Assembly (NCBI GenBank): GCA_044892525.1 | Contig: CM097886.1 | Location: forward strand, 128,588,001 to 128,652,000 | DNA length: 64,000 nucleotides | Source: Schmidtea polychroa | Lineage: Eukaryota | Reading direction: 5' to 3' | Shown here: piece by piece, positions 1 to 42,860 of the stretch | Numbering within the stretch: position 1 is the stretch's first letter | Layout: each line of letters begins with the position of its first letter | Translations under genes and position numbers: made by a program | Notes under the pieces: model-generated | The model's input: only the letters and a program-made list of their open reading frames with translations | Told to the model about the DNA's origin: nothing | Database searches by the model: none

Positions 1-3000
1 CCACTCTTGTTGTTTCCATTTCCGGATAATTTCACCAAATTGTTCAGGGTACCATACGTACACCCGTCGATATTCTTCAATCGCTTTAACGATTTTTCGT
101 AGGTTTTGAATCCTTTTGCATGATTCGGCTATCCATTTTGCTAGTTCTACCACCGCTCGTCGACGATTTTTCGCCCCGTTTTGTAATATCTCCATCAACT
201 CCTTACATTTTTGTGCTTCCAACAATGTTGCTGCTTCTTCCTCATCTGCGTCGGCGTCTATTGGTAGATGTCCTGAATCAGACACTCTTCTCCTCATCAT
301 ACAGATTCTCGGTTGATTTTCTGGTATGTTCAGTCGTTGGTTCATTTCTTGTTCTGTTTCAACTTCTACTCTGATCTGGATAGCATTGTTTTTCACAAAT
401 TTTGACTGCTCATTCTCAATGTAACTTAGACGTATTAATTTAGGTGTCCCAGAAGCGATATTTTCTGATGTTGTTGGTCGTTGATAGCAGGCGCTCCTTG
501 GATCTGGTTTCAATGTTTCTTTATGCATGTTAAGGCTATCTTTCAATGGTTCGATTGCTATCGTCACTTTTCTGCTAAACGGCCATGGTACCTTGTCGTC
601 ATAATTTCCTTTGCAGATGACGAAGAATGCCGACACATAATTTCCTTTACCTATCCCGTCTCCGTTCGGGTATATTCGCAATTTCATCTTGTACTCACCT
701 AATCCTGAGTAGAACGGTGGACTTACTAATCGTGTGATTTTCTCTTCCTTTGCTGATTTTATCTTTTCCATCCAATTCTCAATTTTCCACGTGAATGGTG
801 CTAACCTTACTGGTTCTCGTATCTCCTCATCTTCTCCTGATGGTAATTCATTTTGGAATTCTTGTGGTAATATATCCTGGTAAGTATCGATCGGTTTCTC
901 TCTTACCCATACTGCTGCGATCTCTTCGGGTATATTATCTATCCAATTTGGTTCCAACTTTTGCTGCTCCCAATCCCATCGAGCTTCACTTTCGATCCAC
1001 ACTTTTTTCCATGGTATCAGTTTGCAATCTTCGTCATTGAAGGCTGCTAGTTTTAGTTTATCATCCTTTAGCCAATGGTTATAAATATCTATTATTCGAT
1101 CCATCTTTGCCCTCATTCCCCATTGGAATCTTTTAATTTGTTGCTCGGTTTTCGTGGCGTTTTTGTGCCCACCAGATGGTTCATCCATCGCGATTATATT
1201 GATGACGGCTCCATCTTCCCAGATTCCTAGTTCGTAAATTACAGTTCGGTCTCCTCTTTCTAGCATGTGCCGGTTGTACATTATTATCACATCTTCGATC
1301 ATTCCATCCTCACTATTTTCTCGAGCTTTTTGGATGATCTCTTGATCTATGATTTGCACTAACTCGTCAACTTGGCAATCGGGATTAACTTCTATTATTT
1401 GTTTCTCTTCATTTGGCAACTTCACCTTTATTTTTATCGTTTCATGCTCGCATTTGGTTCTCTCGTATTCTCCGTATTTAGATATCAATTCTGTCGCTCG
1501 TTTGTCTTCGAATCTCATAATTTCCGTGTCTCGTACGTCTTTAACAAATTGTTTCATTAGTTGTGGCCATCTTTCTCTCAATCTATTAATGTATTTCCTT
1601 GTCTGATCGATAGCTTGTTTGACTAAGATTATTTGGTTTTCTTTCATTATTTTTCGTTCGATCTTTTCCAATTCTGGTTCTACTTCATTGTTAAACACTT
1701 GTTGGATTTTCTTGAACATCTCTGCTACCGAGTCGTCATCCCTGGTTTTCTCTAAGGTTAAGATGTTAGTTTCGTTTGGCCATATCATCGCATCTACCAA
1801 ATGTATGCCTATTTTAACTTTGTAACCATCGACATATAATTGTTTATTTTTATGGCTCGTTCCCATTTTTTCCTGTACCCAGTTGTACAGTTCATCGGTA
1901 TTTGTTCCTTTTAATTCGATAGTCTGTATCTGAATCTCGGGGTGTTGAATGCTTACTTGATATTGATCTGGGCCTGCTTCCTTTAGTTTCTCTTTATATT
2001 TTGTTGCTAAATCTTTCCATGCTGCCGTTATTATACCTCCTTCACACTGGTATACTTGAGTTATAAGTTTTAAGCATTTTCTGTATGTTAACTCGTTGAT
2101 GTAGTTCTCATTTCGCTCTATTTCTGTTACTGTGTCGAGAATTTCCTCGAATATCTCTTCTTCATCTTTTTCTATCATTGATTTCATGTCATCATTTTCA
2201 CTCTCCTCACTACTTTGAGGTGTTTCACTGTTTGGGGGTGTTTTCGGTTCGTTATTTACCTCACTTGACTGAAATAATTCGCCTCCCAGGCTACTCACCT
2301 CACTTTTCTCATCTTCCTGATCCGTCTGATCGCTCCGCATTTGTCTCAGCATGTTTATTTTAGCTTTGGTATGTGGTTCCTTCTTTTCAAACCACTCATT
2401 TTTCCTGAACCAATGCTCTTTCACTTTTTCTTTTATTTGTTCCTCAGTTAATGTAGGATTTTCGTTTTTGATTCTGTCTTCGATTTTTTGTAGTAGTACC
2501 CTCTGAATTCGATTTTTTGTAATTATCTCATTGCTTTTTGGTTCGTCTTTACTCTCATCTCTCTTTTGTCTCCTTTCTTTCTCCTCTTTGGTAAATTCTT
2601 TAATCAATTGTATTTTCTCTTCACTGCTCAATTCTGTTCGTGGATCAATCTCATCTTCTTTTGTCGTTTTTATCTCCTTGTTTATTATCGGTTCACTCCC
2701 GTCGTTGTTAACACACTGCTCCGCAGTGTGCGATTCCTCTTTATTTGTTAATCTCATCATATTTATTCTTCCGGGATTCGCTTCCCGTTGTTTCCATCTT
2801 TCTTGAATTTCTCTGGCTTCCTCGTTTTGTAATCTTTGCCATTCGACTCGTTGCTGATCTTGTTGTTGCTTACTTGGTTGGTTCCGGATTTCCTCGGTGC
2901 TCTGCATCATGTTGATTCGTTGTTGTTGGTTATTAGTCGGTATTCGCAGGATCATATCTTTTAATTGTTCGATTTCCTGCATGAGGTTGATTTGTGTGTT

Positions 3001-4032
3001 CTGAACTGGATTGTTTGATCCTGGTTGATTTGGTTTGGTTCTCATCGTGCATTCTCTTGCCATGTGTCCAGGCTGATTACAATTGTAGCAGGTTCTGGTT
3101 CCTCCTCTGCTCATAGACATCATGGGTCCTCTGCAGACATTTTCCGTGTGGCCTCTTCTCCCACACTTTTGACACATCCTTGCTTTATAACATTCATTGC
3201 TCCAATGCCCTGGTCGTTGGCATATGTTGCACGTTCGATTGTTGATGTCGTTGTTCCTGAAATTATTAGTAAAATTTTGAATATTACCTCCATTGTTTTG
3301 GTTTCTTGTTTGTGGAGTTTTGAACAACTGTTGCGATCCTGGGATGAATTGATTCATTACTGGATTTGCATTATTGACTTGGTTGTTTGTGGTTGTTGCT
3401 GTTGCCGCTGGAGCTGCTGGAGCTGCTGTCATTGCTGCTACTTGTATTGGTGTTAAGTAGGTTTCACATTTGTTAGCGATTTTTAGTGCTTCTTCCAGCG
3501 TCTCTGGTGCTCGGCATCCCAAGGTTGCTCGTATATCCTCTCGTTTCATGCCATCTACGAATACGGCTATTATTTTGTCTTCCGGAACTGGTTGATTTGA
3601 ATCGAAGGCTTCTCGTGCTAGTCGTCTCAATTCGCATGCGTACAGTGCGTTGGATTCGTTATATTTCTGCTTTCGATGCAGAAAGTCTAACATTTTTCGA
3701 TTTCCCTCTTTTTCGGTACCGAATGTTTTTATTAAAAATTCCTTGATCTCTTTCCACGTTCTCAACTTAGTTGCATCACATTTCGCCTCCAAGTATACAT
3801 CTTGGGCGCTTCCCTTTAGATATAGGGGTATTCGTTCTCGTACGACTATGTCTGGCCAGTGACATATCGTAATGTATACTTCGAATTCCTTTATAAACGT
3901 TTCCAGCTGGTTTATATTTCCATCGAATGGCTCTCCTCGAAATTTCTCTCTGAATTCTCCAATGTTGACGTGCACATTACTTGTTTCCGGTGGGTCCGTT
4001 AGCCCTGTTACATTTGGAATTCCGTCTGTCAT
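1..4032 (-). CDS. gag: Gag-cargo polyprotein, 3'-partial (>=1344 aa): capsid-like Gag, 3x CCHC, 2 ubiquitin-like domains, TRAF-type MATH
   Basis: Hand translation shows the frame open from 4341 to 1, with the first ATG at 4032 (MTDGIPNV). Gag core FDGNINQLETFIKEFE...LYLKGSAQDVY...TWKEIKEFLIKTF lies at ~3930-3450. Knuckles CNICQRPGHWSNEC, CQKCGRRGHTENVC and CYNCNQPGHMAREC lie at 3231-3049. MATH PFTWKIENW...VSPPFYSG...YKMKLRIYPNGDGIGKGNYVSAFFVICKGNYDDKVPWPFSRKVTI...FVKNNAIQIRVEV lies at 798-358. Confidence 0.92.
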   Translation of the reverse strand, partial: MTDGIPNVTGLTDPPETSNVHVNIGEFREKFRGEPFDGNINQLETFIKEFEVYITICHWPDIVVRERIPLYLKGSAQDVYLEAKCDATKLRTWKEIKEFLIKTFGTEKEGNRKMLDFLHRKQKYNESNALYACELRRLAREAFDSNQPVPEDKIIAVFVDGMKREDIRATLGCRAPETLEEALKIANKCETYLTPIQVAAMTAAPAAPAATATTTNNQVNNANPVMNQFIPGSQQLFKTPQTRNQNNGGNIQNFTNNFRNNDINNRTCNICQRPGHWSNECYKARMCQKCGRRGHTENVCRGPMMSMSRGGTRTCYNCNQPGHMARECTMRTKPNQPGSNNPVQNTQINLMQEIEQLKDMILRIPTNNQQQRINMMQSTEEIRNQPSKQQQDQQRVEWQRLQNEEAREIQERWKQREANPGRINMMRLTNKEESHTAEQCVNNDGSEPIINKEIKTTKEDEIDPRTELSSEEKIQLIKEFTKEEKERRQKRDESKDEPKSNEIITKNRIQRVLLQKIEDRIKNENPTLTEEQIKEKVKEHWFRKNEWFEKKEPHTKAKINMLRQMRSDQTDQEDEKSEVSSLGGELFQSSEVNNEPKTPPNSETPQSSEESENDDMKSMIEKDEEEIFEEILDTVTEIERNENYINELTYRKCLKLITQVYQCEGGIITAAWKDLATKYKEKLKEAGPDQYQVSIQHPEIQIQTIELKGTNTDELYNWVQEKMGTSHKNKQLYVDGYKVKIGIHLVDAMIWPNETNILTLEKTRDDDSVAEMFKKIQQVFNNEVEPELEKIERKIMKENQIILVKQAIDQTRKYINRLRERWPQLMKQFVKDVRDTEIMRFEDKRATELISKYGEYERTKCEHETIKIKVKLPNEEKQIIEVNPDCQVDELVQIIDQEIIQKARENSEDGMIEDVIIMYNRHMLERGDRTVIYELGIWEDGAVINIIAMDEPSGGHKNATKTEQQIKRFQWGMRAKMDRIIDIYNHWLKDDKLKLAAFNDEDCKLIPWKKVWIESEARWDWEQQKLEPNWIDNIPEEIAAVWVREKPIDTYQDILPQEFQNELPSGEDEEIREPVRLAPFTWKIENWMEKIKSAKEEKITRLVSPPFYSGLGEYKMKLRIYPNGDGIGKGNYVSAFFVICKGNYDDKVPWPFSRKVTIAIEPLKDSLNMHKETLKPDPRSACYQRPTTSENIASGTPKLIRLSYIENEQSKFVKNNAIQIRVEVETEQEMNQRLNIPENQPRICMMRRRVSDSGHLPIDADADEEEAATLLEAQKCKELMEILQNGAKNRRRAVVELAKWIAESCKRIQNLRKIVKAIEEYRRVYVWYPEQFGEIIRKWKQQEW

Positions 4033-5123
4033 TATTTCTTGACACAAAATTGTTATATTGGTTGACTCTGAACTATTTCCTTCCTCGTCTGATGATTCAA
4101 TGTCACTTATCGGATCTAGTTCGGTTCGTTTAAGATCGTCGCTGTTCTCAAATTCGTTTGTTAAACTGTCTGATTCAAATACTGTTTCTACTGATGCTGG
4201 CTTCCTGTGTAGTTTTCTGTTGGTCTTGGCCTTTTGTATCTCTTCCTTTTCCAATAAACTGAGGTTTCCTTTACTTTTTCGCCTCGTTCGGTTAGCTATG
4301 CTATCAATTTTTCCTCCTTTTAATATCCTTTGATAAATTTTCTACTTTGTCAATCGAGCTCGATGTTTTCTAAGTATTTTTCTCGCTTTAATCTTTACGA
4401 TTCTCTAACTCTTCTTGGATTTGGTTTTATTAATTTCCTTGATTCTTCTCTTCTAATTGATTTCTCTATATCTCTTGATTTCTATTGCTTTCTTGATTTC
4501 TTTGATTTCTTTCTGAATTGTTTGCTTTATTCTAGAATAATTAACACCTCTAGTACATATCATAAATTCTCTTTATTAAACCCTTCATTTACTTTCCCTT
4601 TTCCCTTTATTTTACTGTCCCTTCGCTTCAAATTTTCTAGCTTTTCTACACTTCTCGCTATTCGCCCCATTTTGATTTTAAGTTGATTTTAAATTATCTA
4701 TAACTCGTATCAATTATCTATATAGTCGTATCAATTATCTATCCCTTTTATTATTATCATAGAAATATAATATTAATCACATAAATATCAAAATAAACAT
4801 ATCATTAATAAATAAAATTCAATAATTCAACTACTATCTATTCGTTCGCTTTTCCCCATCCAAAAACTGGTTTAATTTTCGCTTGCGCCGGCGCTTTATC
4901 ATAATTCTCCTCTACTCATTACATATTTATCGCACTTAATCTATTTCAGTTTAATCAATTTCATAGTTAATCATTGATGCTTTGGTTCGCGCGACCTCTA
5001 CATCCACCTTTATTTACCATCGGCTCTCTGGCCGGTTTGTTCAACTCCTTTATTTTCATTTAAATCATTTCACTCAATCACCATCGGCTCCTTGGCCGGT
5101 TTAATCAACTCATTTTAATCTCA

Positions 5124-5433
5124 TGAAGTCTTTTACGACTCCTAGACGCCTGGGCTTTTACACCATTACGCCATATAATCTACTATTACCCATCAACGCT
5201 TTGGTTTGTTAGACCTCCGCGTCGGCATCGGCTTCCGGCCGGTTTAATCAAAATTGAAGTCTTTTACGACTCCTAGACGCCTGGGCTTTTACACCATTAC
5301 GCCATATACTCTACTATTACCCATCAACGCTTTGGTTTGTTAGACCTCCGCGTCGGCATCGGCTTCCGGCCGGTTTAATCAAAATTGAAGTCTTTTACGA
5401 CTCCTAGACGCCTGGGCTTTTACACCATTACGC
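5124..5433. repeat. 131 bp tandem repeat (~2.4 copies) in the retroelement leader
   Basis: The unit TGAAGTCTTTTACGACTCC...GGCTTCCGGCCGGTTTAATCAAAAT restarts at 5124, 5255 and 5386, and the copies are nearly identical. Confidence 0.95.
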
Positions 5434-6840
5434 CGTATTCGCGGTCTTCGGTCCCTGACCGGTTTCAAATGCCCTAAATGAGGTTTCTTCAACCCCCAGA
5501 CGCCTTCGGTTTTAACACCTACTATCGTCCCTACCGCGATTAAATTGAGTTGACAGTTGACTTTCGGGCTAATCAAAAATTCGAGGCTCCTCCTACTCCA
5601 ACTCTTAATCTGCTGAGGCCTCACAACTGGCTCAATTCTTGGCCGCTTATTGAAAAGAGTCTAATACCGGTAACTCTAATCTCATCGCCGTTTCACTGGG
5701 CCTATCGGTACTCGGTGTGGGCATCCGGGTTTTGTACCGATCCCTGCTAGCAATAATCACGAAGAAAAAACATCCTATCTATCAGGATTTAAAAAACACG
5801 GAAATGCCTAATCGCCTTGATCGTGATTCTCAAAAGTGATGAACCAGATCTCCCGACTAGTGAAGCTAAAAGGAAATTGGGTATGCAGTTGACTCTCGGT
5901 CTCCCGCCTCACAACTGGTCCAATCTTGGTTGCCTGTTGAGTACGAGTTCTTTACCGGTTGACTCGCATCTCACAACCGTTTCACTGGGCTCCTTGATAC
6001 TCGGTGTAGGTAACTGGGTCTCTCTCGCTCGCTACCCTTCCGGGTTTTTGTATCAAGTCCCGCTAGCAACTCAAAAAGTGCGCCCAATACTCGGTGTGGC
6101 ATCCGGGTTTTTGTATTGGGTGATCCAGCATCATCAGTCCCTTGGCCGATAATCTCCTGGACACTACAGTCCGGTGGTTAGCCGCTGTACTCGGGTGCCT
6201 CATCACTCGCTAGGGAAAATCATTATTCTCATCTGATTTGAAGTCCAAAAACGGTTTCTTCAAATCCGCAGCTGCTCTCGGATTAAATTTTTAACATTTA
6301 GCGCGCGTTTTTCAATTTTTATTTTATTTTTCTATTTTTATTCACCCTTTTAGTTAGTCCCCGTCTCCCAGACAAAAAAATATAATAATCGCGTTGGTTC
6401 GTTTCCCACAAGTGGTGATCAGTCACTGGACAGAAACTCCCCAACATTTGCGATGGATCCTACTACATTCTCTCATCAGGGTGATCAGGATTTCCCCATC
6501 CGGGCAAGTGTCGTAAGGACGATTCACTTGTCATCCCCTCATTATCGTATCTCTTTATGCCAAAATAACAAACAGGAAGAAAAGAAAATTGGAAATAAAA
6601 ATCGTACTGATCTTAGCGATCAGCTCATTCATACGACTATGATCAGTCCTGCATTCAACTTTGATTTTAGTTCTAATTGCTGTGTTGCTTGTCTATTTAT
6701 TTAACGTATTTTGTGTCCTTTATATGTCTATGTTCATCGTATGTTTTACACCTTTCGGTTGCTATAATGGATTTTTAATATAATTTACTAATTTTATCAC
6801 TTCATATTCATTCACAAGAAATTTATTTGACAACATCTCC

Positions 6841-7323
6841 TTATGGGAGGTATATTACAATTTTCTCTCTAACATTCGTATCGCATACGTTGCATCGTTT
6901 AATTTTCTCTACGCAATTCTCGCAGTAGCATAAATGACCACATGGAATCGTCATTACTCGTATTTCATTGGTTCTGCATATGAAGCATTTTCTAAAATCT
7001 TTAACTTGATGTTCGATTGCTTCTTTAATTTCTTCCTCGATCGTTTCCATTTTTATCATTATCTCCTGCCATTTGATGTTAAATTTGGCATTGTCTAATC
7101 GTAAATTTTGAAGTTGATAAACTCTTTTAGTGGTCAATTCTGCATTAGGTGTCGCTATTTTCATCATTACGCATATTTCCTCAGCTTGCGGTCTTGGATT
7201 CAAGCTCATCTCATCTTGGATTTTTATCAACTGGTCCGCTTTGCGATTTAGCCGTTGTAACGAATTGTGTGTTAAATCTACGAATTTTTCGAGTCTCTTT
7301 GTAATGTAGCCGGTTGATTCCAT
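6841..7323 (-). CDS. Coiled-coil plus C-terminal IAP/MDM2-type C3HC4 RING protein (putative E3 ligase), 160 aa
   Basis: The C-terminus CFICRTNEIRVMTIPCGHLCYCENCVEKIKRCNVCDTNVREKIVIYLP matches the terminal RING pattern of IAPs, including the hydrophobic tail. ATG start, TAA stop, same strand as gag. No BIR domain seen. Confidence 0.88.
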   Translation of the reverse strand: MESTGYITKRLEKFVDLTHNSLQRLNRKADQLIKIQDEMSLNPRPQAEEICVMMKIATPNAELTTKRVYQLQNLRLDNAKFNIKWQEIMIKMETIEEEIKEAIEHQVKDFRKCFICRTNEIRVMTIPCGHLCYCENCVEKIKRCNVCDTNVREKIVIYLP

Positions 7324-8037: not shown

Positions 8038-8443
8038 AATTTGTATGGTGGGTTACTGGTGGTTGAATGATTGAGTGCTGTTACCAGCGTAACCCAAAAT
8101 ACAACATTGTTTTTCCGCTTGGTACCCGTTGAGTGATCAACGTTGGTACTGTACCAAGGGTTGAGTACTCGCAAAAAGTGAGCGCATCAAAGCACTATAG
8201 TTGTCGAGTACTCCGTGGGTTCACGGACTACCGATAGAAGGTGTGTGTCCGATTTCTCAGGTCCCTTTATCAAAATTGTTTTCCCAACCTTATGCACAAA
8301 CTCTCATTTCCCAGGCAATCATAAACTGTACTAGTCATTATTTTATCACTACAAAACGTGCAGTATTTTAACAAGGAACATATTATTTGAAGACTACCAC
8401 AATACATAAAAATACTACAAAACACCTAAAACCGAATATAAGT

Positions 8444-8902
8444 TCAAACAGGCTTATTGGTAGGACTGGCCAATTTCGTCGCAGCTGCTAGTGACAAATT
8501 TGCTTGTCGCTCGTATTCGGCCAGTCTAGCTTTCTTCAATTTTTCCCGAATATTTCGGCCTAACCGCTTTCTTTTGGGTTTCTCTTTCGCGGCCGGGGGG
8601 TATATTGCTGCTAGTTCCACGGTCAACGGCCGGATTTGGCTTATGGCGGCTCCGTGAACTACTTGTTCATTTCGCTCGGTTTCTAGCGCGCGGAGCTGGA
8701 GCTTCAGTGCCCGGATCTCCATCTGATCCTGCGCGGCTTGAGTCTGCAGTTGAAGGACCTGCGCCACCTTCCTTTTCATATCCTCGGGACTAAACCAGGT
8801 GCTTTCTAGTTCCCGGCACCGTCCCTTGAGCTTGTCTACTCGTATGCGGAGCTCCTCGGACTGTTTTTGAGCTTCTGCCCTATCTCTTCGCAGATTTTCC
8901 AT
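8444..8902 (-). CDS. LTR-encoded coiled-coil protein with TWFSP motif and basic NLS-like tail (ORF-B)
   Basis: GC-rich ORF, ATG at 8902 (the track starts at GTG 8914). LESTWFSPEDMKRKVAQVLQLQ and PKRKRLGR align with YEGTWFSPPQMKEERSKVLRLE and RKRKRLTR in ORF 48191-48952. Confidence 0.8.
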   Translation of the reverse strand: MENLRRDRAEAQKQSEELRIRVDKLKGRCRELESTWFSPEDMKRKVAQVLQLQTQAAQDQMEIRALKLQLRALETERNEQVVHGAAISQIRPLTVELAAIYPPAAKEKPKRKRLGRNIREKLKKARLAEYERQANLSLAAATKLASPTNKPV

Positions 8903-9124
8903 TAGTCTGAACACTAGATAAATTCAGCGATTATATTCTTGCAGCATACTATTCATTCAATTATAAAATAAAATCAATATTATAAATAAACATAGTTTCG
9001 GATGTTAAGCACGCAATACACAAGATGATTTATTAAAAGGACTGAAATAATTATCACTAAAATCAAAGTTTAATAAAATCGCAACTGAATGTTAATTTGC
9101 AAAAAACAAAATTTTGACGATGAG

Positions 9125-9490
9125 TCAGTTCAGTCGCTTGCGAGGCCTTCCCCTCTTCCGCGGGGTTGCCTCGGCCTCTTCTAGGTCCTCCACGGTTTTT
9201 CCCTCTTTTTCTGCTTGGATTTGTAGCTCGATCTTCTTGAGTCGCATCTGAGCTGCTTCTACCTCGATGGCCGCTCGGTCGCGGGCCTCTTGCAAAAAAT
9301 CGTTTGTGGGCTCTGTTTTTACCCACGCCGGAGCGTCCGGCTCCGGCCCACTCCTGATTACTGGGCCAAAGTTGTCGAGGTCCAAACCCCGATTCCAATC
9401 ATGGATACGGTGCCATATGTACCGTGTACGGAGTCTGGTAAGCATCTGTCGGTCGGCTTCTTCGTGGCTATCGCTGTCAGAGTAGGACAT
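9125..9490 (-). CDS. LTR-encoded 121 aa protein with C-terminal AT-hook (ORF-A)
   Basis: GC-rich ORF in an AT-rich context with a helical middle, ending TPRKRGRPRKRLN (AT-hook core RGRP). Confidence 0.72.
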   Translation of the reverse strand: MSYSDSDSHEEADRQMLTRLRTRYIWHRIHDWNRGLDLDNFGPVIRSGPEPDAPAWVKTEPTNDFLQEARDRAAIEVEAAQMRLKKIELQIQAEKEGKTVEDLEEAEATPRKRGRPRKRLN

Positions 9491-9991
9491 TTCTACAAAA
9501 TAATAATCAAGCCCCTCTATACTGATTGAGATACGACGTCAACCACAAGATTTTGTTGACCCTTTTTCCCTTTAAAAAAAAAATATTTTATTTTAAGACT
9601 ACCATCTATAAGTTTAGGAGCAGTGGAATAAGATTTCCTACTTTATCAAAACAAACACACAAAAAAATTTTCGTCAAAATTCGTTTGTTTAAATTAATCA
9701 TTTCCATTCAAAATTTTGTTTACCACTGAGTAGTAATTTTAATTACTATTTATAAATTTTAATTTACATATTAATAAAATGTGAATTTTTTCCTTTTTGA
9801 TCGTCATTCTTAGGCCACTAAATTCGGGCACGCTGGGGCGACAGGTACTAGCAACGAACTAAGCTCTTCGTCTGCTTACCTTTCCTTCGGTTGTGCTCGT
9901 TATGAGTGGTTTGCTCTGCATACAAGTAATTTATTTAATTTGCTAATTTCTAAATTTCCAGGTGATCGATATCGGATTGGGATATCGATTT

Positions 9992-10360
9992 TTTGTAGTT
10001 AACCGTAATAATACCAATAATAATAACAATGAAATAACGATACTAATAATAATAATAATAATGATAATAATAATATTAATAATAGCAATGATAGTAATAA
10101 TAATAAGAATAATAATAAATTTTAATAATGGTAATAATAATAATACTAATAATAGTAATAACAAGAATAATAATAAATTTTTATAATGGTACTGATAATG
10201 ATGATAATAATAATAATGCTAATTATGATATTCATAATAATGATAATAATAATATAATAATAATAAGAATAACAATACTAATAGTAATGACAATGTTGAT
10301 ACTGCTAATAGTAATAACAAGGGAAATGATCAGGATTATGATAACTATAATTTTATAATC
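9992..10360. repeat. Degenerate (AAT)n microsatellite inside the LTR
   Basis: Long interrupted AAT/GAT run; it accounts for the poly-N/poly-I spurious ORFs. Confidence 0.9.
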
Positions 10361-12570
10361 CCATGTTTTAGAATTATAAATTCATGTTTTATAATTTATA
10401 CTTTGATAATTTTCGATTTATAATTTAAAATTTTTCCATTTAGGGATTTACAATCTTGTAATTTATAATTAATTTCATATTTTGAAATTTATACATTCAT
10501 ATTTTATAAGTTATAATTGCTTAACTTATAATTTATAAGTTTATAATCTAAAATTTATACTTTTGTAATTCGTATTTTCATACTTTATAATTTGAAATTT
10601 TTAGTCGACGGAATATACTTCTTACAACTTCCTTCTATGATCAACATTGTTTTCCGCAGTACTTACAGATTTCCTGGTCCTATTTGTGGATTAAACTTCA
10701 GGGTTCTAGCGCGTCTATCGCCTATCTGTAACCAATCCTAAGTTGATTTTTATACGAAAATTGTTTACTACTATCTCTGATCAGACTTTCTCCATTAACA
10801 ATTTACATTTTCAGGATCGACGTGGTTTGTACCTAGCTATCGTAATTATTTATAACTTATAGTTTTATAGTTAACAACAAGAACATTACAACTAAGAGCC
10901 TACACATTTACAAACATTTTAAAGTGGGAGCTAGATTTAAAATGTCTATCTTTACTCGGAATCAACATATCTAGATCAAGTTATACCTGTACGTATGCCG
11001 AATATCTCTCTTTTTTCTATTACTTTATCAAAGATCCTTACTACAAAACCTAGTTCGGCATATGTCTAAGTATAATTGAAATTACCATTATGAATCAACT
11101 AGCTACATTAATGTGAGTGTAGAATTGTGTAATTTTAGGTACGAGCTCTACTCAAATTAGAACCTTAGTGTAGAGTTATTGTTCAGGATTTTAAGTGTTG
11201 AGTTTAATTGTATATTACGCAATGAGTCGGGAAGAATATTGCTTTCATGGCCTCACTGTGACCACGTCCACAAACCTTAGTGTTGTGTGCTAAGTCAACC
11301 ATTTACGGCTGACCTTAAATAAATACGAAGAGTCAGGCGGAGGGTTTCCTCGACCTAACTCCATGGCAGGACCATGAAGTAGTTCGACCTCCGGCTGACC
11401 CGAACAAAAGGAAATCATATAATAAATATCACTATAATAACGATAATGCGTGTCTGCATGTCTTGTTAATAACGATTTTAATAAATTGGATGCAGGACTG
11501 AACAACGACGCAGGAATACCAGTACGCCGTTGATCACTCATACATCGCAAAAAAAAATTTTAAGCAAAAATAAATTTAAAATACCATCTATATAATTAAA
11601 CAATTAATATACAAATAAAGATCAATGCTTACTATCGATTTTGGAAATTTTGTCACAAAAATTTGGCATAAAAGTGATTGATTGTGACTGAAACGTGTCA
11701 GTATATATACCTATTTAGTACACGTGTATGTATTGATGCATTAAAACAAACTCGAATTCTTTTTATTCCAGAATTTTCTATTTAGCGATTTTGCTATTTT
11801 TAATGACAATTTTTGTGCCATAATTTTTGTTTTTATTTTTATATTTTTATTTTTTAATTATTTTTCGTTAATTTGCCGTCCATGATGGATTTGGAACGGT
11901 TCCAGAACATTCTATTTTATTTTTAATTTAATTTTTATTTTAACTGATGTTTTGTGAATTTCTTTTAAAGATTTATTATTTTTAATACTAATTTATTTAT
12001 TTTCCTTAACTTTTGTTGTTCTAGATAACTTTTGTGATGGTCATCGCCATTTTTATAGAATGTTCTGGGTTTTTCTGGAATGTTTTACTGTTTTTATCGT
12101 CTTTTAAGTTATTCGAGTCTGTTTTTTGTAACCCTGTGTTTATTTGGTTATTTTTGAGTTAGATTTTTGCATCACTTCTTGCTTTTGTATAATTTTGTTT
12201 AATTTCTTTGTTTATGTTTTTGTTGCTTTCTCCTTTAGTTAATATTGTTTATTTGGTGTAGGTTTTAATATTTAACTATACTTGGTGCTTTTTTACTTGC
12301 TGTGTACCTACGCGTTTCAGTCACAATTAGTATTTTGGGTCTAGAAATCAGTTCTAGCCCAACATAAATTAAAAATGAAAATTATATGGAGAAATTTTGA
12401 AATTGAGTTTTAACAAGAAAGGCTGGTGAAAAACTGGGCCGCATGAGCCTGCTATGCGGTGGCTTGTAATTTCTAGTTTTGCCACTCACAAGAAACCTTT
12501 CCTGCTTGGTTCCCATCCCAATTGCTGATTCCCATAGAATTGAAATCTTCTAAATGTTAAGATTATTTAA

Positions 12571-17995: not shown

Positions 17996-19272
17996 AAAAT
18001 GAAAGGAAGGAAGGAAGAAGCATTATCAAGTTTCAAAAGAGTTTGAACAGGCGCAATGTTGACCAATCAAATTTTATCCTACAAACATCAAACATGAGAA
18101 TTATCTTATTGTAAAGCAAAAATTAATAATAAAAATTTTAAATTATTTAAATAATTAATTTAATTTAAACAATTATAATAATAATCGACTAAATTAATGT
18201 GTCCAGTTTTAACTGGAAATGAAAAATAAAATTGGTAAAATAATTATTATTATAAATATTTTATTAATCTGGGATCCAAATCATTATTATAAATATGTTT
18301 AAGGTTGACAGACTCGTGTAAATTATGATCTGATAAGCTTAGTGGGATCGCAATCCACCGCAAACGGTCATCTTTATTTGGAGTTAAATTTAAATGTTTT
18401 CTCATAGCAATAACTTCTGGATCCTCATTAAGGTTCTTGGTGCTTTCATCGTTAGATGTGTCCATCAAATTGATTCTAGGAGTTTCAATAACCAACGATT
18501 GACTGACAAAATAGCCAGGATTTTTATCATTGACATTAGATCTTGCATTTCTATATAATTCATTGACCATTTTATACCATCCGTTACTCGCACTAATCTC
18601 TCGGATTTGTTCTTCACTGTGTCCCGATTTCCTCATTTTCTGTTGAATTAGTTCATTACTATCCTTATCGGAAGGGTGTAAATCTTCATACAATTCTTCA
18701 ATGTAAAAATAATTTGGAATTCGTTTGGGAGTTTTAGTGTTTTTTAATTTCAAATGGGAACTTACCGCAATTGGAACTTTTTCTTTGAATTTTCTGGCTT
18801 TTATTACTAAATTTTTAATTTTAGGTTTTATACAATTGTTATTCGAATTATCTGATAATTTCTTTGATCTTTGCAGTGAAATGATTTTAGTACTGGCCTC
18901 ATTCATGAAATGTTCTGGAGCCTTATCTTTTACATTTTCATTCCAACTTTTATTACTACTACTTGTGGATATTATTTCAGGTGTTTTATTGAAATTATTT
19001 ATATTTAATATTTTAATCGGTTGACCAGGTCTCGGTTTGGCTGCATAAACTTGTTGAAAATTATGTTTTTTAATCAAGGGGAGACCAAATGCGGGTCTGT
19101 AACATGAATTTAGGGGATGAAAATTAATGTTAAAGCCCAATTGATTTTTGTTAATTAAAATAGTTTCAGTAAGCATTTTAATTTTTAAAATTTTCAAATA
19201 ATTGTACAAAATTGATGCAAAAAATTAATATATTAATTTTATTAAATTTTGATTGGTTTAAAAGAATTTTAA
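17996..19272 (-). repeat. Left arm of ~1.28 kb inverted duplication
   Basis: Reverse complement of 25122-26398; paired coordinates sum to 44394. Confidence 0.95.
18250..19209 (-). CDS. Orphan 319 aa basic protein, copy 1 (TTG at 19209; shared ATG at 19176)
   Basis: A long intact intronless ORF in very AT-rich DNA; differs from copy 2 by two residues plus the start codon. No domain recognised. Confidence 0.65.
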   Translation of the reverse strand: MYNYLKILKIKMLTETILINKNQLGFNINFHPLNSCYRPAFGLPLIKKHNFQQVYAAKPRPGQPIKILNINNFNKTPEIISTSSSNKSWNENVKDKAPEHFMNEASTKIISLQRSKKLSDNSNNNCIKPKIKNLVIKARKFKEKVPIAVSSHLKLKNTKTPKRIPNYFYIEELYEDLHPSDKDSNELIQQKMRKSGHSEEQIREISASNGWYKMVNELYRNARSNVNDKNPGYFVSQSLVIETPRINLMDTSNDESTKNLNEDPEVIAMRKHLNLTPNKDDRLRWIAIPLSLSDHNLHESVNLKHIYNNDLDPRLIKYL

Positions 19273-25121: not shown

Positions 25122-26398
25122 TAAAATTCTTTTAAACCAATCAAAATTTAATAAAATTAATATATTAATTTTTTAGCATCAATTATGTATAATTTTTTGA
25201 AAATTTTAAAAATTAAAATGCTTACTGAAACTATTTTAATTAACAAAAACCAATTGGGCTTTAACATTAATTTTCATCCCCTAAATTCATGTTACAGACC
25301 CGCATTTGGTCTCCCCTTGATTAAAAAACATAATTTTCAACAAGTTTATGCAGCCAAACCGAGACCTGGTCAACCGATTAAAATATTAAATATAAATAAT
25401 ATCAATAAAACACCTGAAATAATATCCACAAGTAGTAGTAATAAAAGTTGGAATGAAAATGTAAAAGATAAGGCTCCAGAACATTTCATGAATGAGGCCA
25501 GTACTAAAATCATTTCACTGCAAAGATCAAAGAAATTATCAGATAATTCGAATAACAATTGTATAAAACCTAAAATTAAAAATTTAGTAATAAAAGCCAG
25601 AAAATTCAAAGAAAAAGTTCCAATTGCGGTAAGTTCCCATTTGAAATTAAAAAACACTAAAACTCCCAAACGAATTCCAAATTATTTTTACATTGAAGAA
25701 TTGTATGAAGATTTACACCCTTCCGATAAGGATAGTAATGAACTAATTCAACAGAAAATGAGGAAATCGGGACACAGTGAAGAACAAATCCGAGAGATTA
25801 GTGCGAGTAACGGATGGTATAAAATGGTCAATGAATTATATAGAAATGCAAGATCTAATGTCAATGATAAAAATCCTGGCTATTTTGTCAGTCAATCGTT
25901 GGTTATTGAAACTCCTAGAATCAATTTGATGGACACATCTAACGATGAAAGCACCAAGAACCTTAATGAGGATCCAGAAGTTATTGCTATGAGAAAACAT
26001 TTAAATTTAACTCCAAATAAAGATGACCGTTTGCGGTGGATTGCGATCCCACTAAGCTTATCAGATCATAATTTACATGAGTCTGTCAACCTTAAACATA
26101 TTTATAATAATGATTTGGATCCCAGATTAATAAAATATTTATAATAATAATTATTTTACCAATTTTATTTTTCATTTCCATTTAAAACTGGACACATTTA
26201 TTTAGTCGATTATTATTATAATTGTTTAAATTAAATTAATTATTTAAATAATTTAAAATTTTTATTATTAATTTTTGCTTTACAATAAGAAATTCTCATG
26301 TTTGATGTTTGTAGGATAAAATTTGATTGGTCAACATTGCGCATGTTGAAACTCTTTTGAAACTTGATAATGCTTCCTTCCTTCCTTCCTTTCATTTT
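25122..26398 (+). repeat. Right arm of inverted duplication
   Basis: See left arm, 17996-19272. Confidence 0.95.
25185..26144 (+). CDS. Orphan 319 aa basic protein, copy 2
   Basis: Intact ATG-to-TAA ORF; near-identical inverted copy at 18250-19209. Confidence 0.7.
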   Translation: MYNFLKILKIKMLTETILINKNQLGFNINFHPLNSCYRPAFGLPLIKKHNFQQVYAAKPRPGQPIKILNINNINKTPEIISTSSSNKSWNENVKDKAPEHFMNEASTKIISLQRSKKLSDNSNNNCIKPKIKNLVIKARKFKEKVPIAVSSHLKLKNTKTPKRIPNYFYIEELYEDLHPSDKDSNELIQQKMRKSGHSEEQIREISASNGWYKMVNELYRNARSNVNDKNPGYFVSQSLVIETPRINLMDTSNDESTKNLNEDPEVIAMRKHLNLTPNKDDRLRWIAIPLSLSDHNLHESVNLKHIYNNDLDPRLIKYL

Positions 26399-37400: not shown

Positions 37401-40400
37401 TTAATCACTAGCAATATAATATTAACTGAGAATATAATGTATAAACATATGATGATGTATCCATTTAATGCCGATATGAAATATATGATTGTATTTTCGC
37501 TATTATTTCGGTGAACCTGGGTTTAACTTTCGGTACAGTTGCAATTTGCAGCTCTGGCTCTAGATTTCATATAGTTTCAATTCCAACTACAACTGACAAA
37601 CTTATTCAGTGATGGGATTCAACCGAGCAGGCTGTTAATTTATTTAAATCTTCTATTTGTTACCTTTACCAACACAGCAGTTTTCTCACAGGGTGCGATG
37701 GACGGTTGGTCAGCGGTTTAAGAACAAAAGTGATACATGCTCTCTAGTTTAAATCGATACTTATTTTTTTATTATTTAGGGGATCACACAACATTTGCAA
37801 TATATTATGTGGAATATCAATTTTAAACTATTACGACATGAACGATCACTTATCTAGATTCATTTTGTAAGTTGTATTATAGTTAGCCATCTACGTACCT
37901 GCTTTCATAAATATTCTTCCACTTTAACCAACATTGGCAGTGAAACTGTTTTTCAGAACGCCACATAAATGGAAAAGCAAATATAGATAAAACTAAACTA
38001 TTCAATCATTAGAATATAGTCCAAAAAGGCGCGGTCGAAAGTGAGAAATATTAAAACGCTCATTGTAATCTCAAGATGATTTGATGTATTTTGCCGTTCT
38101 ACATTTACTGCATTACCCAATTAGAATTATTTATTTAATTCTATTCTCACTCGTAGGCCAGAGATCTCAGCAACCAACTGGCAGCTAATGTTGGCCCTAC
38201 AGTGCATATCCAAGGTGCACAACATGCACAAATTGTGCATCACGGAGGCAACGCATATCTTGTACAAAGCACAGGTCGACTGGAGGATGAATCTCCTAAC
38301 CTTTCTCACGCTACCAAGAGTAATCCAGTAACGGTATGAATTTTGAACTACATTTTCCTTATCCAATTAAACTTTAAAGATGCAGTGGCTTTACGATAAT
38401 TATGAAACTGCGGATGGGGTCAGCTTGCCTCGTTCTACACTGTATAATCATTACCTTCAACATTGCCAACAAGAGAAATTAGAGCCAATGAATCAAGCAT
38501 CATTCGGAAAATTGATTCGGTCCGTGTTCTTCGGGTTGCGAACTCGTAGGCTCGGAACGAGGTTAGTCGTTTGGAAATTGTCGAAATGTTCTATATCGAT
38601 CATTGTATATTCTAGAGGCAATTCCAAATATCATTATTATGGGATCCGAATCAAACCGAACTCTTTGTTGAATCATTACGTAGAAGATCAAACGTTCGCA
38701 ATGCGACAATACCCGTCATTTCATCGACAAAGGTTTATTGATAAGTTTATCGGTAATGATTATCATTGTGGCACTCATTTTAGTAATGATAACGATTTCC
38801 ACTGGCGGGCCAAATATTCCAGTAACGGATTGAATTATGGCGGTGTCAGTGGGGTCGGTAGTGGAGGAGCGGGTATCAATAACAATTCTGTCATCACCAG
38901 CACCAGCAGCAGCAATCCTACCAGTGGCGGCACAGGCAATAACAGCTCTATCCTCATCATGAACAACGCCACTGGTGGTAGCAATATGGCTGACTGTAGC
39001 AACAATCAGCACAGCAATTACCTCGGGGAGAGCAGCTCTGCCTTGCCGAATCTCAGTGATATCATTGCACGAGCTGAGTTGGATACGTTGATCGAGGAAG
39101 ACTGCCACAACGAGGGCGTCTCACTGGAGGACATAAACATCTTCTGCCAAATGTATCTCGATCACAGTGATGCTGTTCTCAGTGCTGTTGTTTATCTCAA
39201 TTTCAAATACATCGAAACGCTATGGCAAGAATTTTGGCGTACATCATCAAAGGTGATTGTAATGATTGATTATTGATAATAATAATTAATTTAATCAATA
39301 AATTAAATAATTAACTAATTGATTGATTTAGTCAATAAATAGAGAAAATACCTGTAGTCAAAATGTGGATGAAAGAAATTAAAAAACAAATCAAAGGCGA
39401 GAGAAAATATTATATTACTTAATAAACGGAATAATGAGTAATTTAGTCAATAAATCGAAAAACTAATTAATTTAATCAATAAATGAATTAATCAATTTGG
39501 TCAATAAATGGAATATTATATGTATTTAGTCAATAAATAGAGAATAATATTGATCTATAGTCAAAATTAAGATAAAAGAAAATTTAAAAAACATCAAATG
39601 TGAAAAATAAGTTATTTTATGTAAAAATTAATTAATTTAATCACAAAATGGAATAATTATTTATTTTAATCACTGAAATTAATAATCAATTAAATAAATA
39701 TATATCATAGTTATACTGAAAAACATTGAAGTACCATACGAAATATTTTATATAATTCAATATAATTTGTAACGCTAAATATTCTGGTTCATCTGATCCA
39801 CCAAATTGCCCATTTGACGAGCATTATCTAACTGAAACCTACTTTTCAATATTGTCTTCATCGACCTAATCTCTCAATTTAAATATATATAAACATTACA
39901 AGCTCTGTTATACCCAGTGCAAATCTCAATAGTAGACTACTTTCGAGTGTACCAGTGTTGCAATGTACCAGGGAAAGTATGCAATAGAGTTGAATCAGCA
40001 ATATTGTATACTTAACTGGCACGAAGAGAAATGATTGTTGATGTCAAAACAGTAATTAACATTTATATCGAATCCTTGAGTGCGTTTGGTTGTGGAATCT
40101 AATATGAATAACATGAAATCCTATTAAATTGAAACGAAAATAGGTCCCATCTGAATGTTGAATGAACCTCCATTGACAGCAAATAGAAATGGAAAAAGAC
40201 CTGACTTAGCGATAATGCCAAAAAGATTCGCATCATTGTCAAGAACGATGTGGATTAATTTAATTCAATTTTATCCAATGTTTTTCATCCTAAATTTCTT
40301 TTCAGCCGACCGCCAATCATTTCGAAGAGAAATTGTCGAAAGCTCAACTTCATAGACTTTTGAAAATTCCACAAATTCAAAGCTTTCTTCAACTTTTCGA

Positions 40401-42860
40401 TAACATGTTCTATCAATCTTTAGTTGAAGTTTTAATTCCGAATGTTTTGCGACCGATTCCTTCTGCACTCACACAAAACATTCGACACTTCGCTAAATCT
40501 CTTGAGGTATTCTTATTTACGCAGTTGGAGAAATTTTACAGATTAATGAATAAATCTAGAGCTGGATGGCGGCAGCAATATGTGGTCTGAATTCAGAAGT
40601 CGTTCAAATTAAAATGAGTTGCGTGTGCGCCCTGGCTCAAACATTGAGACGACATACGAGTCTAAATCACCTTGCACAGGCTGCAAGGGCAGTCCTAAAG
40701 AATGCCAGCCAAATCAGCCAAATGCTGACTGACTTGAACCGAGTTGATTTCACAAATGTCCAAGAGCAAGCATCCTGGGTGTGTGGGTGTGACAACAAAC
40801 GTGTCGATGCATTGCAACAGGAATTCAAGCGAATATTGCAACAGCAAGCGTCATTGGAGGAGTGGGCTACGTGGTTGGATCATGTTGTTTCTGATGTTTT
40901 GGAACCGTATAAAGGAACGTCTCAATATTCTAATGCAGCTCATCAATTCATTTTGAAGTGGTCATTTTACAGTTCAATGGTCATCCGAGATCTCACGTTG
41001 CGATCAGCTGCCAGTTTCGGGAGTTTCCATTTGATACGCTTATTGTATGATGAATACATTTATTATTTGGTCGAGCAAAAAGTGGCAGAGCATTTGAATT
41101 TGAGCCCAGTTGCCGTAACTGGGGAAATGGGAAGGGTAAGATACATTTTTATATTATTAATTACTGAATTGTGTGATCATTATAATCATTGATAATTAAT
41201 TTATCATTTTTATTGATTCAAATATTATTATTAACCCTTTCTAAGGCAAAGGAAAAAAAAGTGATGTAAAACTCAGTTTATTAATAATAATTATATAGTT
41301 ACAAATGATCATAAACACATCTATGGTTTCAAATATTATAAATTTATTCTCTTGTGGCTCAATATATGTCAGTAGTTGTACCAAAAGTAAAAATGATTAC
41401 CGACAGCGTTACACTTAGATATTTTTATTAGTTTAAAATGGTGTACAGTATATTGCCGCCACCTTAGAAAGGATTAATCAAATACACATGGTAATAATCT
41501 TAATAATTGTGAATGTATGTTTGTTACAATTTCTAAATACGGAAAATTTTAAATTGAATCCAATATAAAAATCCCTATAAATTGTTATTATTACAACAAA
41601 ATCACTTTGCCCCATTTAAATTCTTAGGTTAAGTCTGTTCAATTCAAATTAGCACTACTGTGGATGATTATTAAAAAAAATCCGGTAATGTAGTATTTTA
41701 TTGCATTACATTAACATTAAGCATTATGCCTTGCAATGTATAAAACTGTATTTGCCTATCTGTTCACTATTATAATCTATGGATATAAAAAAATTAGTTC
41801 TTTATTATAATAGATACAAAACCCTGAATCATTTTAAAATCATTATATTATAATTTTATTTCCCTTATAATGATACCTTAAAGACAAATGCCAATTGGAT
41901 CTGTTAATCCTTCCTTTATAAGAGTGGCAAATCGAAAGGTAAATGAAACCCCAAAGCAGTAACAATAAAGACTGGCTGGGGTTAGAACTTGGGCTGCTAC
42001 AGTAAGAGCAAACGAGATGCAAGAACAGCGACAAGCAAGAATTGTGCCCAACCAACGCCGGGTAGCCCAGTTAGTTTAATAATAAGAAAGCACTACTCAA
42101 ACTTTACATTTACTATATATTTCACCAGTTATCCTATCGTCAGATAGAATAGAGAAAAACTATAAACAAATTTTATTAATTTTAATAAATATTTTAAAAT
42201 TTAATTTAAATAATCAATTATTTTTCAATTTAGACTTTCTAAAATATTTTATAATTTTATTATATAAATTAAAAAAAAATTTTAAATCAGTTTACATAAA
42301 CATATTTCATTCACATGTGAAACGGAGAGAAAGTTATAAATTTTATCTTGGATTTGTTAATTCAGCAACCCTGTGTGAAAAATGTATAGAAACCCAAATG
42401 ATGCTAGTCTTTTTACTTCCGTGAATTTATGTATGAATTTTATTAATAATGTTTTTACAGATTATAAGAGGAAAATAAGCAAACAGTTTGTAAATTTAAA
42501 TTATAATCTCGCCTCTAATTCATGTAAAGTACAAAATGTGTTTATTATTAAGTCTAAAACTCTGACTGGATTGTGTTTTGATTTCGTTAATCTATTTACA
42601 TGGCCACATACATTGAAGAGGCTCCATGCCATCCTTATATTCGAGCTCTAGAACATTGTCGACCGAAGAGATTGATAAATATCAGTGAAAACAATAAGAG
42701 CTGTACGAGTAAAATAGATATGTCTGATTTAAAAATTTTAATAATTATTATGAACGCTAATGCTGGTAACATTTGTATTTTGAATGTTTCTAAATATCTT
42801 TTTTTATATACTACCCGATGATGAAAAATTGTCACAATATATCGTAAAACTGATGATTGA

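Follow-up and report, generated by a model that had tools for sequence, protein, structure and literature searches.

Candidate retropepsin cleavage sites around captured host-like domains in the polyprotein of a Burro-type retroelement of Schmidtea polychroa

Five related words as candidate protease sites

A stretch of 64,000 nucleotides of Schmidtea polychroa DNA (assembly GCA_044892525.1, contig CM097886.1, positions 128,588,001-128,652,000 of the forward strand; here called the window) was analyzed. It holds the 5' end of a high-copy Burro-type Ty3/gypsy retroelement, whose domain order has already been published. Five similar six-residue words recur in the Gag-cargo-Env-Pol polyprotein of this element (Table 1), where Env is the envelope protein and the cargo consists of borrowed host-like domains. 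The words are probably recognition sites of the element's own retropepsin, which would release the borrowed domains as separate proteins.

In the proposed scheme, each word would be cut between its third and fourth residue (I-N/M-M type), the register being set by Ile at P2. The nucleocapsid (residues 303-452, isoelectric point (pI) 9.9) would be freed, together with spacers of 25, 50, and 136 amino acids, and a protein of 684 amino acids carrying two ubiquitin-like (Ubl) domains and a MATH domain would be released between sites 4 and 5. Furthermore, a second product of about 560 amino acids (Ubl plus BCL2-like) would begin at site 5 and end at an apparent internal Env signal peptide. We infer that cleavage takes place at all of the sites and that the cargo proteins act in free form.

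The polyprotein contains its own protease. The Asp-Thr-Gly triad is intact at residues 2720-2722, and the fold is that of a retropepsin (Z 12-13) of the Ddi1-like type. In the register given above, all five words fit the Ty/foamy-type rule of Val or Ile at P2, a hydrophobic P2', and polar P1 and P3, and the mean hydropathy across the words peaks at the P2 and P2' columns. Sites of this kind have been reported for other enzymes. The Ty1 protease cuts VPTIN/NVHTS, IHLIA/AVKAV, and TARAH/NVSTS (bond at the slash), where P2 and P2' are mostly Val or Ile and P1 is hydrophilic (PMC6952103). Hydrophobic P2 and P2' residues are preferred by ASPRV1 (PMC11402058), and foamy-virus sites resemble those of yeast retrotransposons (PMC3185560).

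The first-pass annotation of this DNA had proposed the five words from the sequence, and its description was largely confirmed. All five lie in one minus-strand frame (window 4341 to 1), and the spacings of 25, 50, 136, and 684 amino acids are correct. The word positions were also right, while the spans given covered only the four-residue cores INLM, INMM, INMM, INML, and ICMM. Site 1, placed just after the zinc knuckles, is 18 residues past the last knuckle (Pfam 416-432), and site 5, placed about 20 residues beyond MATH, follows the domain end at residue 1327 by 18 residues. All five words fall outside Pfam domains, in polar sequence. In the model of residues 641-1350, sites 4 and 5 are in coil, at a mean predicted local distance difference test (pLDDT) score of just 36; this fold came from a two-sequence alignment and was too poor for a fold search.

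The recurrence of the words was compared with shuffled sequences. Of 20,000 shuffles, 37 contained the pattern of the first-pass annotation once and none contained it twice. As that pattern was derived from the data, a pattern-free control was run, in which the best all-pairs family of five 6-mers was sought in residues 1-1447. The top family consisted of exactly the five words. With a composition-adjusted matrix, its score was matched by 0/60 block and 0/60 global shuffles for 6-mers, and by 1-3 of 60 shuffles for 5-mers.

The words had also been said to stand in otherwise unrelated sequence, and the DNA agrees: identity between their flanks was 0.23-0.38, compared with a background of 0.30 +/- 0.06. 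Moreover, the five words use differing synonymous codons. Because the flanks are unrelated and the codons differ, no trace of duplication is seen at the words, and recent internal duplication as their origin was ruled out. A self-comparison of the polyprotein at the protein level found no repeat.

Conservation and like words at other junctions

Three database proteins of a sister family were found, P0160, P0010, and P0008, and the words are conserved in them at the same places (Table 1). P0160 (49% identical) keeps sites 1-4, despite a spacer between sites 3 and 4 that is about 130 amino acids longer. P0010 (also 49% identical) keeps sites 4 and 5, and P0008 has site 1 and the RIN of site 2 before it is broken into a repeat. 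Overall, 22 of 30 motif residues were identical to the relatives, compared with 149 of 319 in the linkers (p 0.004), and the I/L/M/V class was kept at 15/15 motif positions versus 38/50 (p 0.03). Site 4 forms a sharp conserved island, with only 1/10 upstream residues identical. In the rearranged gene model P0161, site 4 reads KISMLQ.

Variation among genomic copies was surveyed in 46 copies of 93-99% nucleotide identity, all of which aligned; they came from match lists and are neither random nor independent. The 20 core codons showed no shared and one private amino-acid change. Of the 30 motif codons, one had a shared change and five had any change, versus 46 and 108 of the 319 linker codons.

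A matrix of the five words was then scanned over the 4,781 other positions of the polyprotein. Rank 1 was QICTMR (2816) and rank 2 was RIFMLR (3871), just after the integrase; rank 3 was RICVMD (4558), and rank 9 was RICLII (3402), between RNase H and integrase, which reads RICMII in three of five other copies. The first-pass annotation had asked whether the motif also marks the Pol boundaries, and the answer was mixed. Like words stand between RNase H and integrase (RICLI) and after the integrase (RIFML), and looser ones at the capsid/nucleocapsid junction (QVAAM) and just ahead of the protease fold (TIAVL, a low score at rank 47). None was convincing at the protease C-terminus. The junction between the dUTPase-like domain and the reverse transcriptase (RT) has only a mirror word, MMNI (residues 2907-2910), at the end of the former and the start of a low-confidence linker to RT; it is kept in 5/5 other copies and was given little weight. 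In the six accessory open reading frames (ORFs; 2,182 amino acids), which need no processing, no word scored above 6.8, compared with 16-20 for the five words, which as training words score high.

Eight distant sequences were also studied, in windows placed by anchor motifs: seven polyproteins that carry env (28-39% identical over the region searched) and a sister family of 3,334 amino acids from the same genome. The set includes the close pairs P0001/P0003 and P0002/P0004. With the strict matrix, the Fisher test gave p 0.007 after the integrase. The top word of the whole P0002 protein is AICMMQ, just after the integrase, and the top two of P0004 are QISMLQ (after the integrase) and RICALQ (between RNase H and integrase). 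The remaining distant relatives have looser junction words (VFSI, VAVI, VSML, VFTI, IGMM, and IAYI). A loose [IV]xx[ILVM] rule was satisfied between RNase H and integrase in 7/8 (random rate 0.21-0.39) and after the integrase in 5/7 with an anchor, the random rates over both junctions being 0.19-0.39. Such variation may be expected if the protease and sites of each lineage drift together.

Further env-bearing families were noted in the genome (L006/L007, G000:C4:73212736-73232735, and L014/L015). The second has the ORF of 3,334 amino acids with two helical-plus-Ubl modules, a BCL2-like domain, and no MATH; a third family is broken. The junction words of both are divergent (IFAA, IFMV, YSMM, and YALM). 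In addition, P0001-P0005 carry two or three aspartic-protease-like domains per polyprotein, one of them past the integrase after a site-like word.

Evidence against the sites and alternative explanations

Several results weigh against protease sites, beginning with the nature of the proposal, which is a prediction from sequence and models. With raw BLOSUM62 scores, 17/120 block shuffles equaled the five-word family, which is not significant, and a star-sum variant (17/150 shuffles) chose a Trp-driven family rather than the five words. Sharp conservation is limited to site 4, as identity is also 40-60% in the neighborhood of sites 1-3. The least conserved word is site 5 (identity 2/6), and in P0161 Ser replaces Ile at sites 1 and 2. 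The copy variation was marginal alone (p 0.065 for shared and 0.038 for any change, and 0.18 against flanks of +/-12).

The junction evidence has similar weaknesses. The permutation p of about 0.009 for the junction windows is generous, since the windows were set after the sequences had been read and QICTMR is doubtful. This word (model residues 137-142) falls inside the range aligned to Ddi1 proteases (model residues 21-146 of a model of residues 2680-2945, mean pLDDT 75), and the relatives have EIIHRA, TVANKP, or PINEEV at its place, none with a hydrophobic P2'. QICTMR may be the last structural strand of the protease, and it was downgraded to doubtful as a C-terminal site for both reasons. 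RICVMD, near the C-terminus, has a hydrophobic segment on either side and falls in a predicted ectodomain beyond the reach of the protease; owing to this location it is probably a false positive. In the distant set, the strict matrix transferred poorly to the RNase H/integrase junction (p 0.15) and to the region after the knuckles (p 0.81, five proteins with the anchor). The matches before the protease in these relatives were discounted, as they lie mostly inside the first strands of the protease. The loose rule was post hoc, being chosen after the sequences had been read.

Among the alternatives, partial use of the sites fares best, and it is unlikely. In this case site 1 would end the nucleocapsid and the Pol sites would be cut, while sites 2-5 would be slow or uncut and the Ubl-Ubl-MATH part would stay joined to its neighbors. 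Foamy-virus polyproteins with Ty-like sites are indeed cut at few places (PMC3185560), and Ty1 peptides vary greatly in cleavability (PMC6952103). The weak conservation of site 5 would also suit partial use. However, sites 2-5 are more alike than the Pol sites and vary among copies as little as site 1, and the conserved island is site 4.

The words could also be docking strands that are never cut, similar to SUMO-interacting motifs, and bind the Ubl domains of the element or host SUMO or Ubl proteins, which we regard as rather improbable. SUMO-interacting motifs have a hydrophobic-x-hydrophobic-hydrophobic core of Val, Ile, or Leu with an acidic or phospho-Ser flank, and Met-rich cores are atypical. 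The word core matches psi-x-psi-psi provided that Met is allowed. The polyprotein has three Ubl domains, whose Atlas neighbors include SUMO-like Rad60-SLD clusters (0.83-0.85, a lead only), and docking would likewise account for the conservation of the words. However, the flanks lack an acidic character (within 7 amino acids on each side, acidic residues number 2-3 and basic ones 1-4), and an acidic Ser-rich stretch was found further downstream of site 4 only. Docking also leaves unexplained the like words between RNase H and integrase, after the integrase, at the capsid/nucleocapsid junction, and before the protease, and the sister family of 3,334 amino acids has Ubl domains without the strict word.

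It is very unlikely that the words are cut by a host enzyme (a retropepsin of the Ddi1/Ddi2 type or an endopeptidase specific for Asn) in place of the element protease. The fold of the element protease is closest to Ddi1, from which a specificity shared with host enzymes might follow, and Asn occupies the predicted P1 in 4/5 words. However, site 5 and the Pol words have Cys, Ser, or Phe there, and the element has an intact protease of its own, retroelement polyproteins being processed by the cognate protease (PMC8402755). Equally remote is the idea that the words have no function in common and are either remnants of old internal duplications or resemble each other by chance in linkers rich in Asn, Gln, and Met: the raw-matrix shuffles, the position of sites 1-3 within one Q/N-rich stretch, and the lack of sites 1 and 2 in P0161 would allow it, whereas the dissimilar flanks in DNA and protein, the composition-adjusted 0/60, and the conservation across relatives and copies speak against it. 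Protease sites remain the most likely interpretation.

Cargo modules and structure of the element

As shown in Table 1, the predicted product of 684 amino acids would span sites 4 to 5. Its order is acidic leader, helical segment, Ubl, long helix, Ubl, and MATH, with about 125 amino acids of acidic and helical sequence ahead of the first Ubl. The presence of two Ubl domains before MATH is weakly supported by profiles and models. The seven-member Ubl profile found ubiquitin and ISG15 (E 2e-10 for polyubiquitin, 4e-6 for a single domain), and the Atlas look-up of the Ubl region scored under 0.9, which is a lead only. Release of the Ubl domains by a host deubiquitinase was considered and rejected, as the ends of Ubl 1 and 3 lack Gly-Gly and P0010 lacks the Gly-Gly that follows Ubl 2.

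Beyond site 5, the order is helical segment, third Ubl (about 1452-1530), BCL2-like domain (BH2-region match, E 0.0014), and Env. The support for the Ubl and BCL2-like domains between MATH and Env is weak but coherent. A hydrophobic stretch at about 1888-1908 was read by eye as the Env signal peptide; the hydropathy scan gave no flag there. The first-pass annotation had the sites bracket the cargo and free one Ubl-Ubl-MATH effector. Ubl-Ubl-MATH does lie between sites 4 and 5, and its release is a reasonable prediction, but site 5 is followed by the third Ubl, the BCL2-like domain, and Env. The sites divide the cargo into modules and do not surround all of it, and the product of 684 amino acids is one of at least two modules.

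Table 1. Features of the element in the window, with residue numbers of the polyprotein
Feature	Position in window	Strand	Basis or remark
5' LTR (long terminal repeat), 4,319 bp, TG...CA	8046..12364	-	LTR comparison
RING-finger ORF, 160 amino acids, in the 5' leader between LTR and polyprotein ORF	6841..7323	-	Pfam; no motif word
5' part (1,447 amino acids) of the Gag-cargo-Env-Pol polyprotein ORF of 4,791 amino acids	1..4341	-	Extends beyond the window to G000:C2:128577969
Capsid-like Gag region, residues about 128-297	3451..3960	-	Aligns with Gag of relatives; Burro Gag annotation (PMC6431247)
QVAAMT, looser candidate site, capsid/nucleocapsid junction	3427..3444	-	QVAVLA in relatives; rank 98; outside the first-pass list
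Three CCHC zinc knuckles (nucleocapsid)	3046..3240	-	Pfam; last knuckle at residues 416-432
Site 1, QINLMQ, residues 450-455	2977..2994	-	Predicted nucleocapsid end; QINVMQ in relatives (P0160, P0008)
Site 2, RINMMQ, residues 475-480	2902..2919	-	RINVMR in P0160
Site 3, RINMMR, residues 525-530	2752..2769	-	Identical in P0160
Site 4, KINMLR, residues 661-666	2344..2361	-	HINMLR in P0160 and P0010
Predicted product of 684 amino acids, residues 664-1347, 80.5 kDa, pI 5.0	301..2352	-	Predicted release
Ubl domain 1, residues about 790-866, no C-terminal Gly-Gly	1744..1974	-	Beta-grasp element order in low-confidence model; seven-member Ubl alignment
Ubl domain 2, residues about 968-1052	1186..1440	-	Weak Pfam UBXL/UBL/UBX matches below cut-off
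MATH (TRAF-C type), residues 1183-1327	361..795	-	Pfam PF22486, E 4e-30
Site 5, RICMMR, residues 1345-1350	292..309	-	RISVLE in P0010; predicted start of second module, which extends past the window

The total element length is 34,160 bp. The 5' LTR and the 3' LTR (G000:C2:128566205-128570523) are 100% identical, and the element is flanked on both sides by a 4-bp TTTA, a weak signal in AT-rich sequence. The 40 scored DNA matches of the element were all near-identical, and identity was 100% for each of the 150 scored RT matches, many of which have the frame of 4,791 codons. The family is young and abundant. Searches of the own genome found no sister family at 40-90% identity, the matches being saturated by near-identical copies.

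The polyprotein ORF, measured from stop to stop, continues past the window into neighboring assembly stretches, and its first Met is residue 104 (window 4032-4030). Pfam identified the zinc knuckles (368-432), MATH, the aspartic protease (2706-2797), RT, RNase H, integrase, and ankyrin repeats; the capsid-like Gag region had no match in the Pfam scan. A mononegavirus-type fusion protein (PF24664, E 9e-69, best stretch 2176-2499) indicates an Env in frame between Gag and Pol, and a dUTPase-like domain in Pol was matched by fold (E 6e-5). At the C-terminal end (G000:C2 128579500-128577969, residues about 4293-4791), an acidic stretch after the ankyrin repeats is followed by a second hydrophobic signal-like segment (4293-4309). 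The tail beyond is a beta-rich, Cys-containing region with a transmembrane segment (4677-4693), similar to the tail of the relatives; the C-terminus is predicted from the sequence to be a second type I membrane protein.

Other ORFs accompany the polyprotein. A counterpart of the RING-finger ORF is fused to Gag in the database model P0008, and a tandem repeat of about 120 bp lies in the 5' leader (window about 5120-5440). Downstream of the polyprotein, the accessory ORFs (L002:451-4911, L003:8482-9504) encode a zf-TRAF plus MATH protein of 487 amino acids and a BIR-RING (inhibitor-of-apoptosis-like) protein of 392 amino acids; further ones of 533, 269, and 341 amino acids have no clear family. 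Elsewhere in the window, ORFs of 324 (18250-19224, minus) and 327 amino acids (25161-26144, plus) have the same weak DUF7339 Pfam matches below the cut-off, and this pair in opposite orientation is probably an inverted duplicate or repeat. A gene for an RFX transcription factor has exons at 38371-39276 and 40560-41192 on the plus strand, where Pfam matched the RFX DNA-binding and BCD domains.

Comparison with known systems

The element shares its plan with Burro1/GYPSM1 as described in PMC6431247: a single ORF of about 4,800 amino acids in a total of more than 30 kb, a three-CCHC Gag followed by MATH, a Ubl between MATH and the BCL2-like domain, Env in frame between Gag and Pol, and then protease, dUTPase-like domain, RT, RNase H, integrase, ankyrin repeats, and BIR (here in an accessory ORF). 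Some differences were found. The ORF has 4,791 amino acids from stop to stop, compared with 4,873 in Burro1, and the Burro section of PMC6431247 gives one Ubi2/SUMO-like domain after MATH, whereas two more precede MATH here. Because the polyprotein shares only 49-58% identity with its nearest database proteins, the element is a Burro sister family or a counterpart from another host rather than demonstrably Burro1 itself.

The element and the chemistry are known, and the mechanism is not new; the processing map was not found in print. The Burro section of PMC6431247 gives no cleavage sites, and no published Burro cleavage-site map was found among titles and the starts of abstracts, though the primary papers on Burro, Ty3, and Ty1 sites may bear on it. 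The words are similar to the sites of Ty1, Ty3, foamy virus, and ASPRV1 in having a beta-branched P2, a hydrophobic P2', polar P1 and P3, and a probable location in inter-domain linkers (PMC6952103, PMC11402058, PMC3185560). Retroviral proteases have no consensus cleavage site (PMC11402058). Unlike usual retropepsin sites, the words, as predicted sites, are more uniform and have Met or Leu at P1'. Moreover, the neighbors of four words are spacers and captured host-like domains, not core Gag-Pol proteins.

BURRO1 transcripts are present in planarian tissue following SMEDWI-2 loss (PMC8532177), and interference of the Burro domains with host apoptosis and ubiquitination was proposed as possible and worth testing, though hard to study (PMC6431247). 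A tentative extension of the protease-site interpretation, which we consider doubtful, is that the site serves as a reusable expression cassette. Captured host signaling domains would have been inserted between copies of one strong site, and the protease would free a TRAF-like Ubl-Ubl-MATH protein and a Ubl-BCL2-like protein, membrane-anchored through the Env signal peptide, at particle maturation, giving virus-like control over host immune and cell-death signaling. With the cleavage map, a precursor of 4,800 amino acids would resolve into named products of predicted size and N-terminus, and the MATH and BCL2-like modules could then be produced and tested in what is likely their natural form. 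If true, the ten or so related sites of a single enzyme would also define the specificity of a Ty3/gypsy protease unusually cleanly.

Retroviral polyproteins also release p6-type peptides and spacers. The predicted products are comparable to retroviral accessory proteins such as dUTPase and p12, which are extra proteins within Gag or Pol freed by the cognate protease (PMC3185560). However, those predicted here differ in being large host-type signaling modules, namely Ubl-Ubl-MATH of 80 kDa and Ubl-BCL2-like of about 65 kDa.

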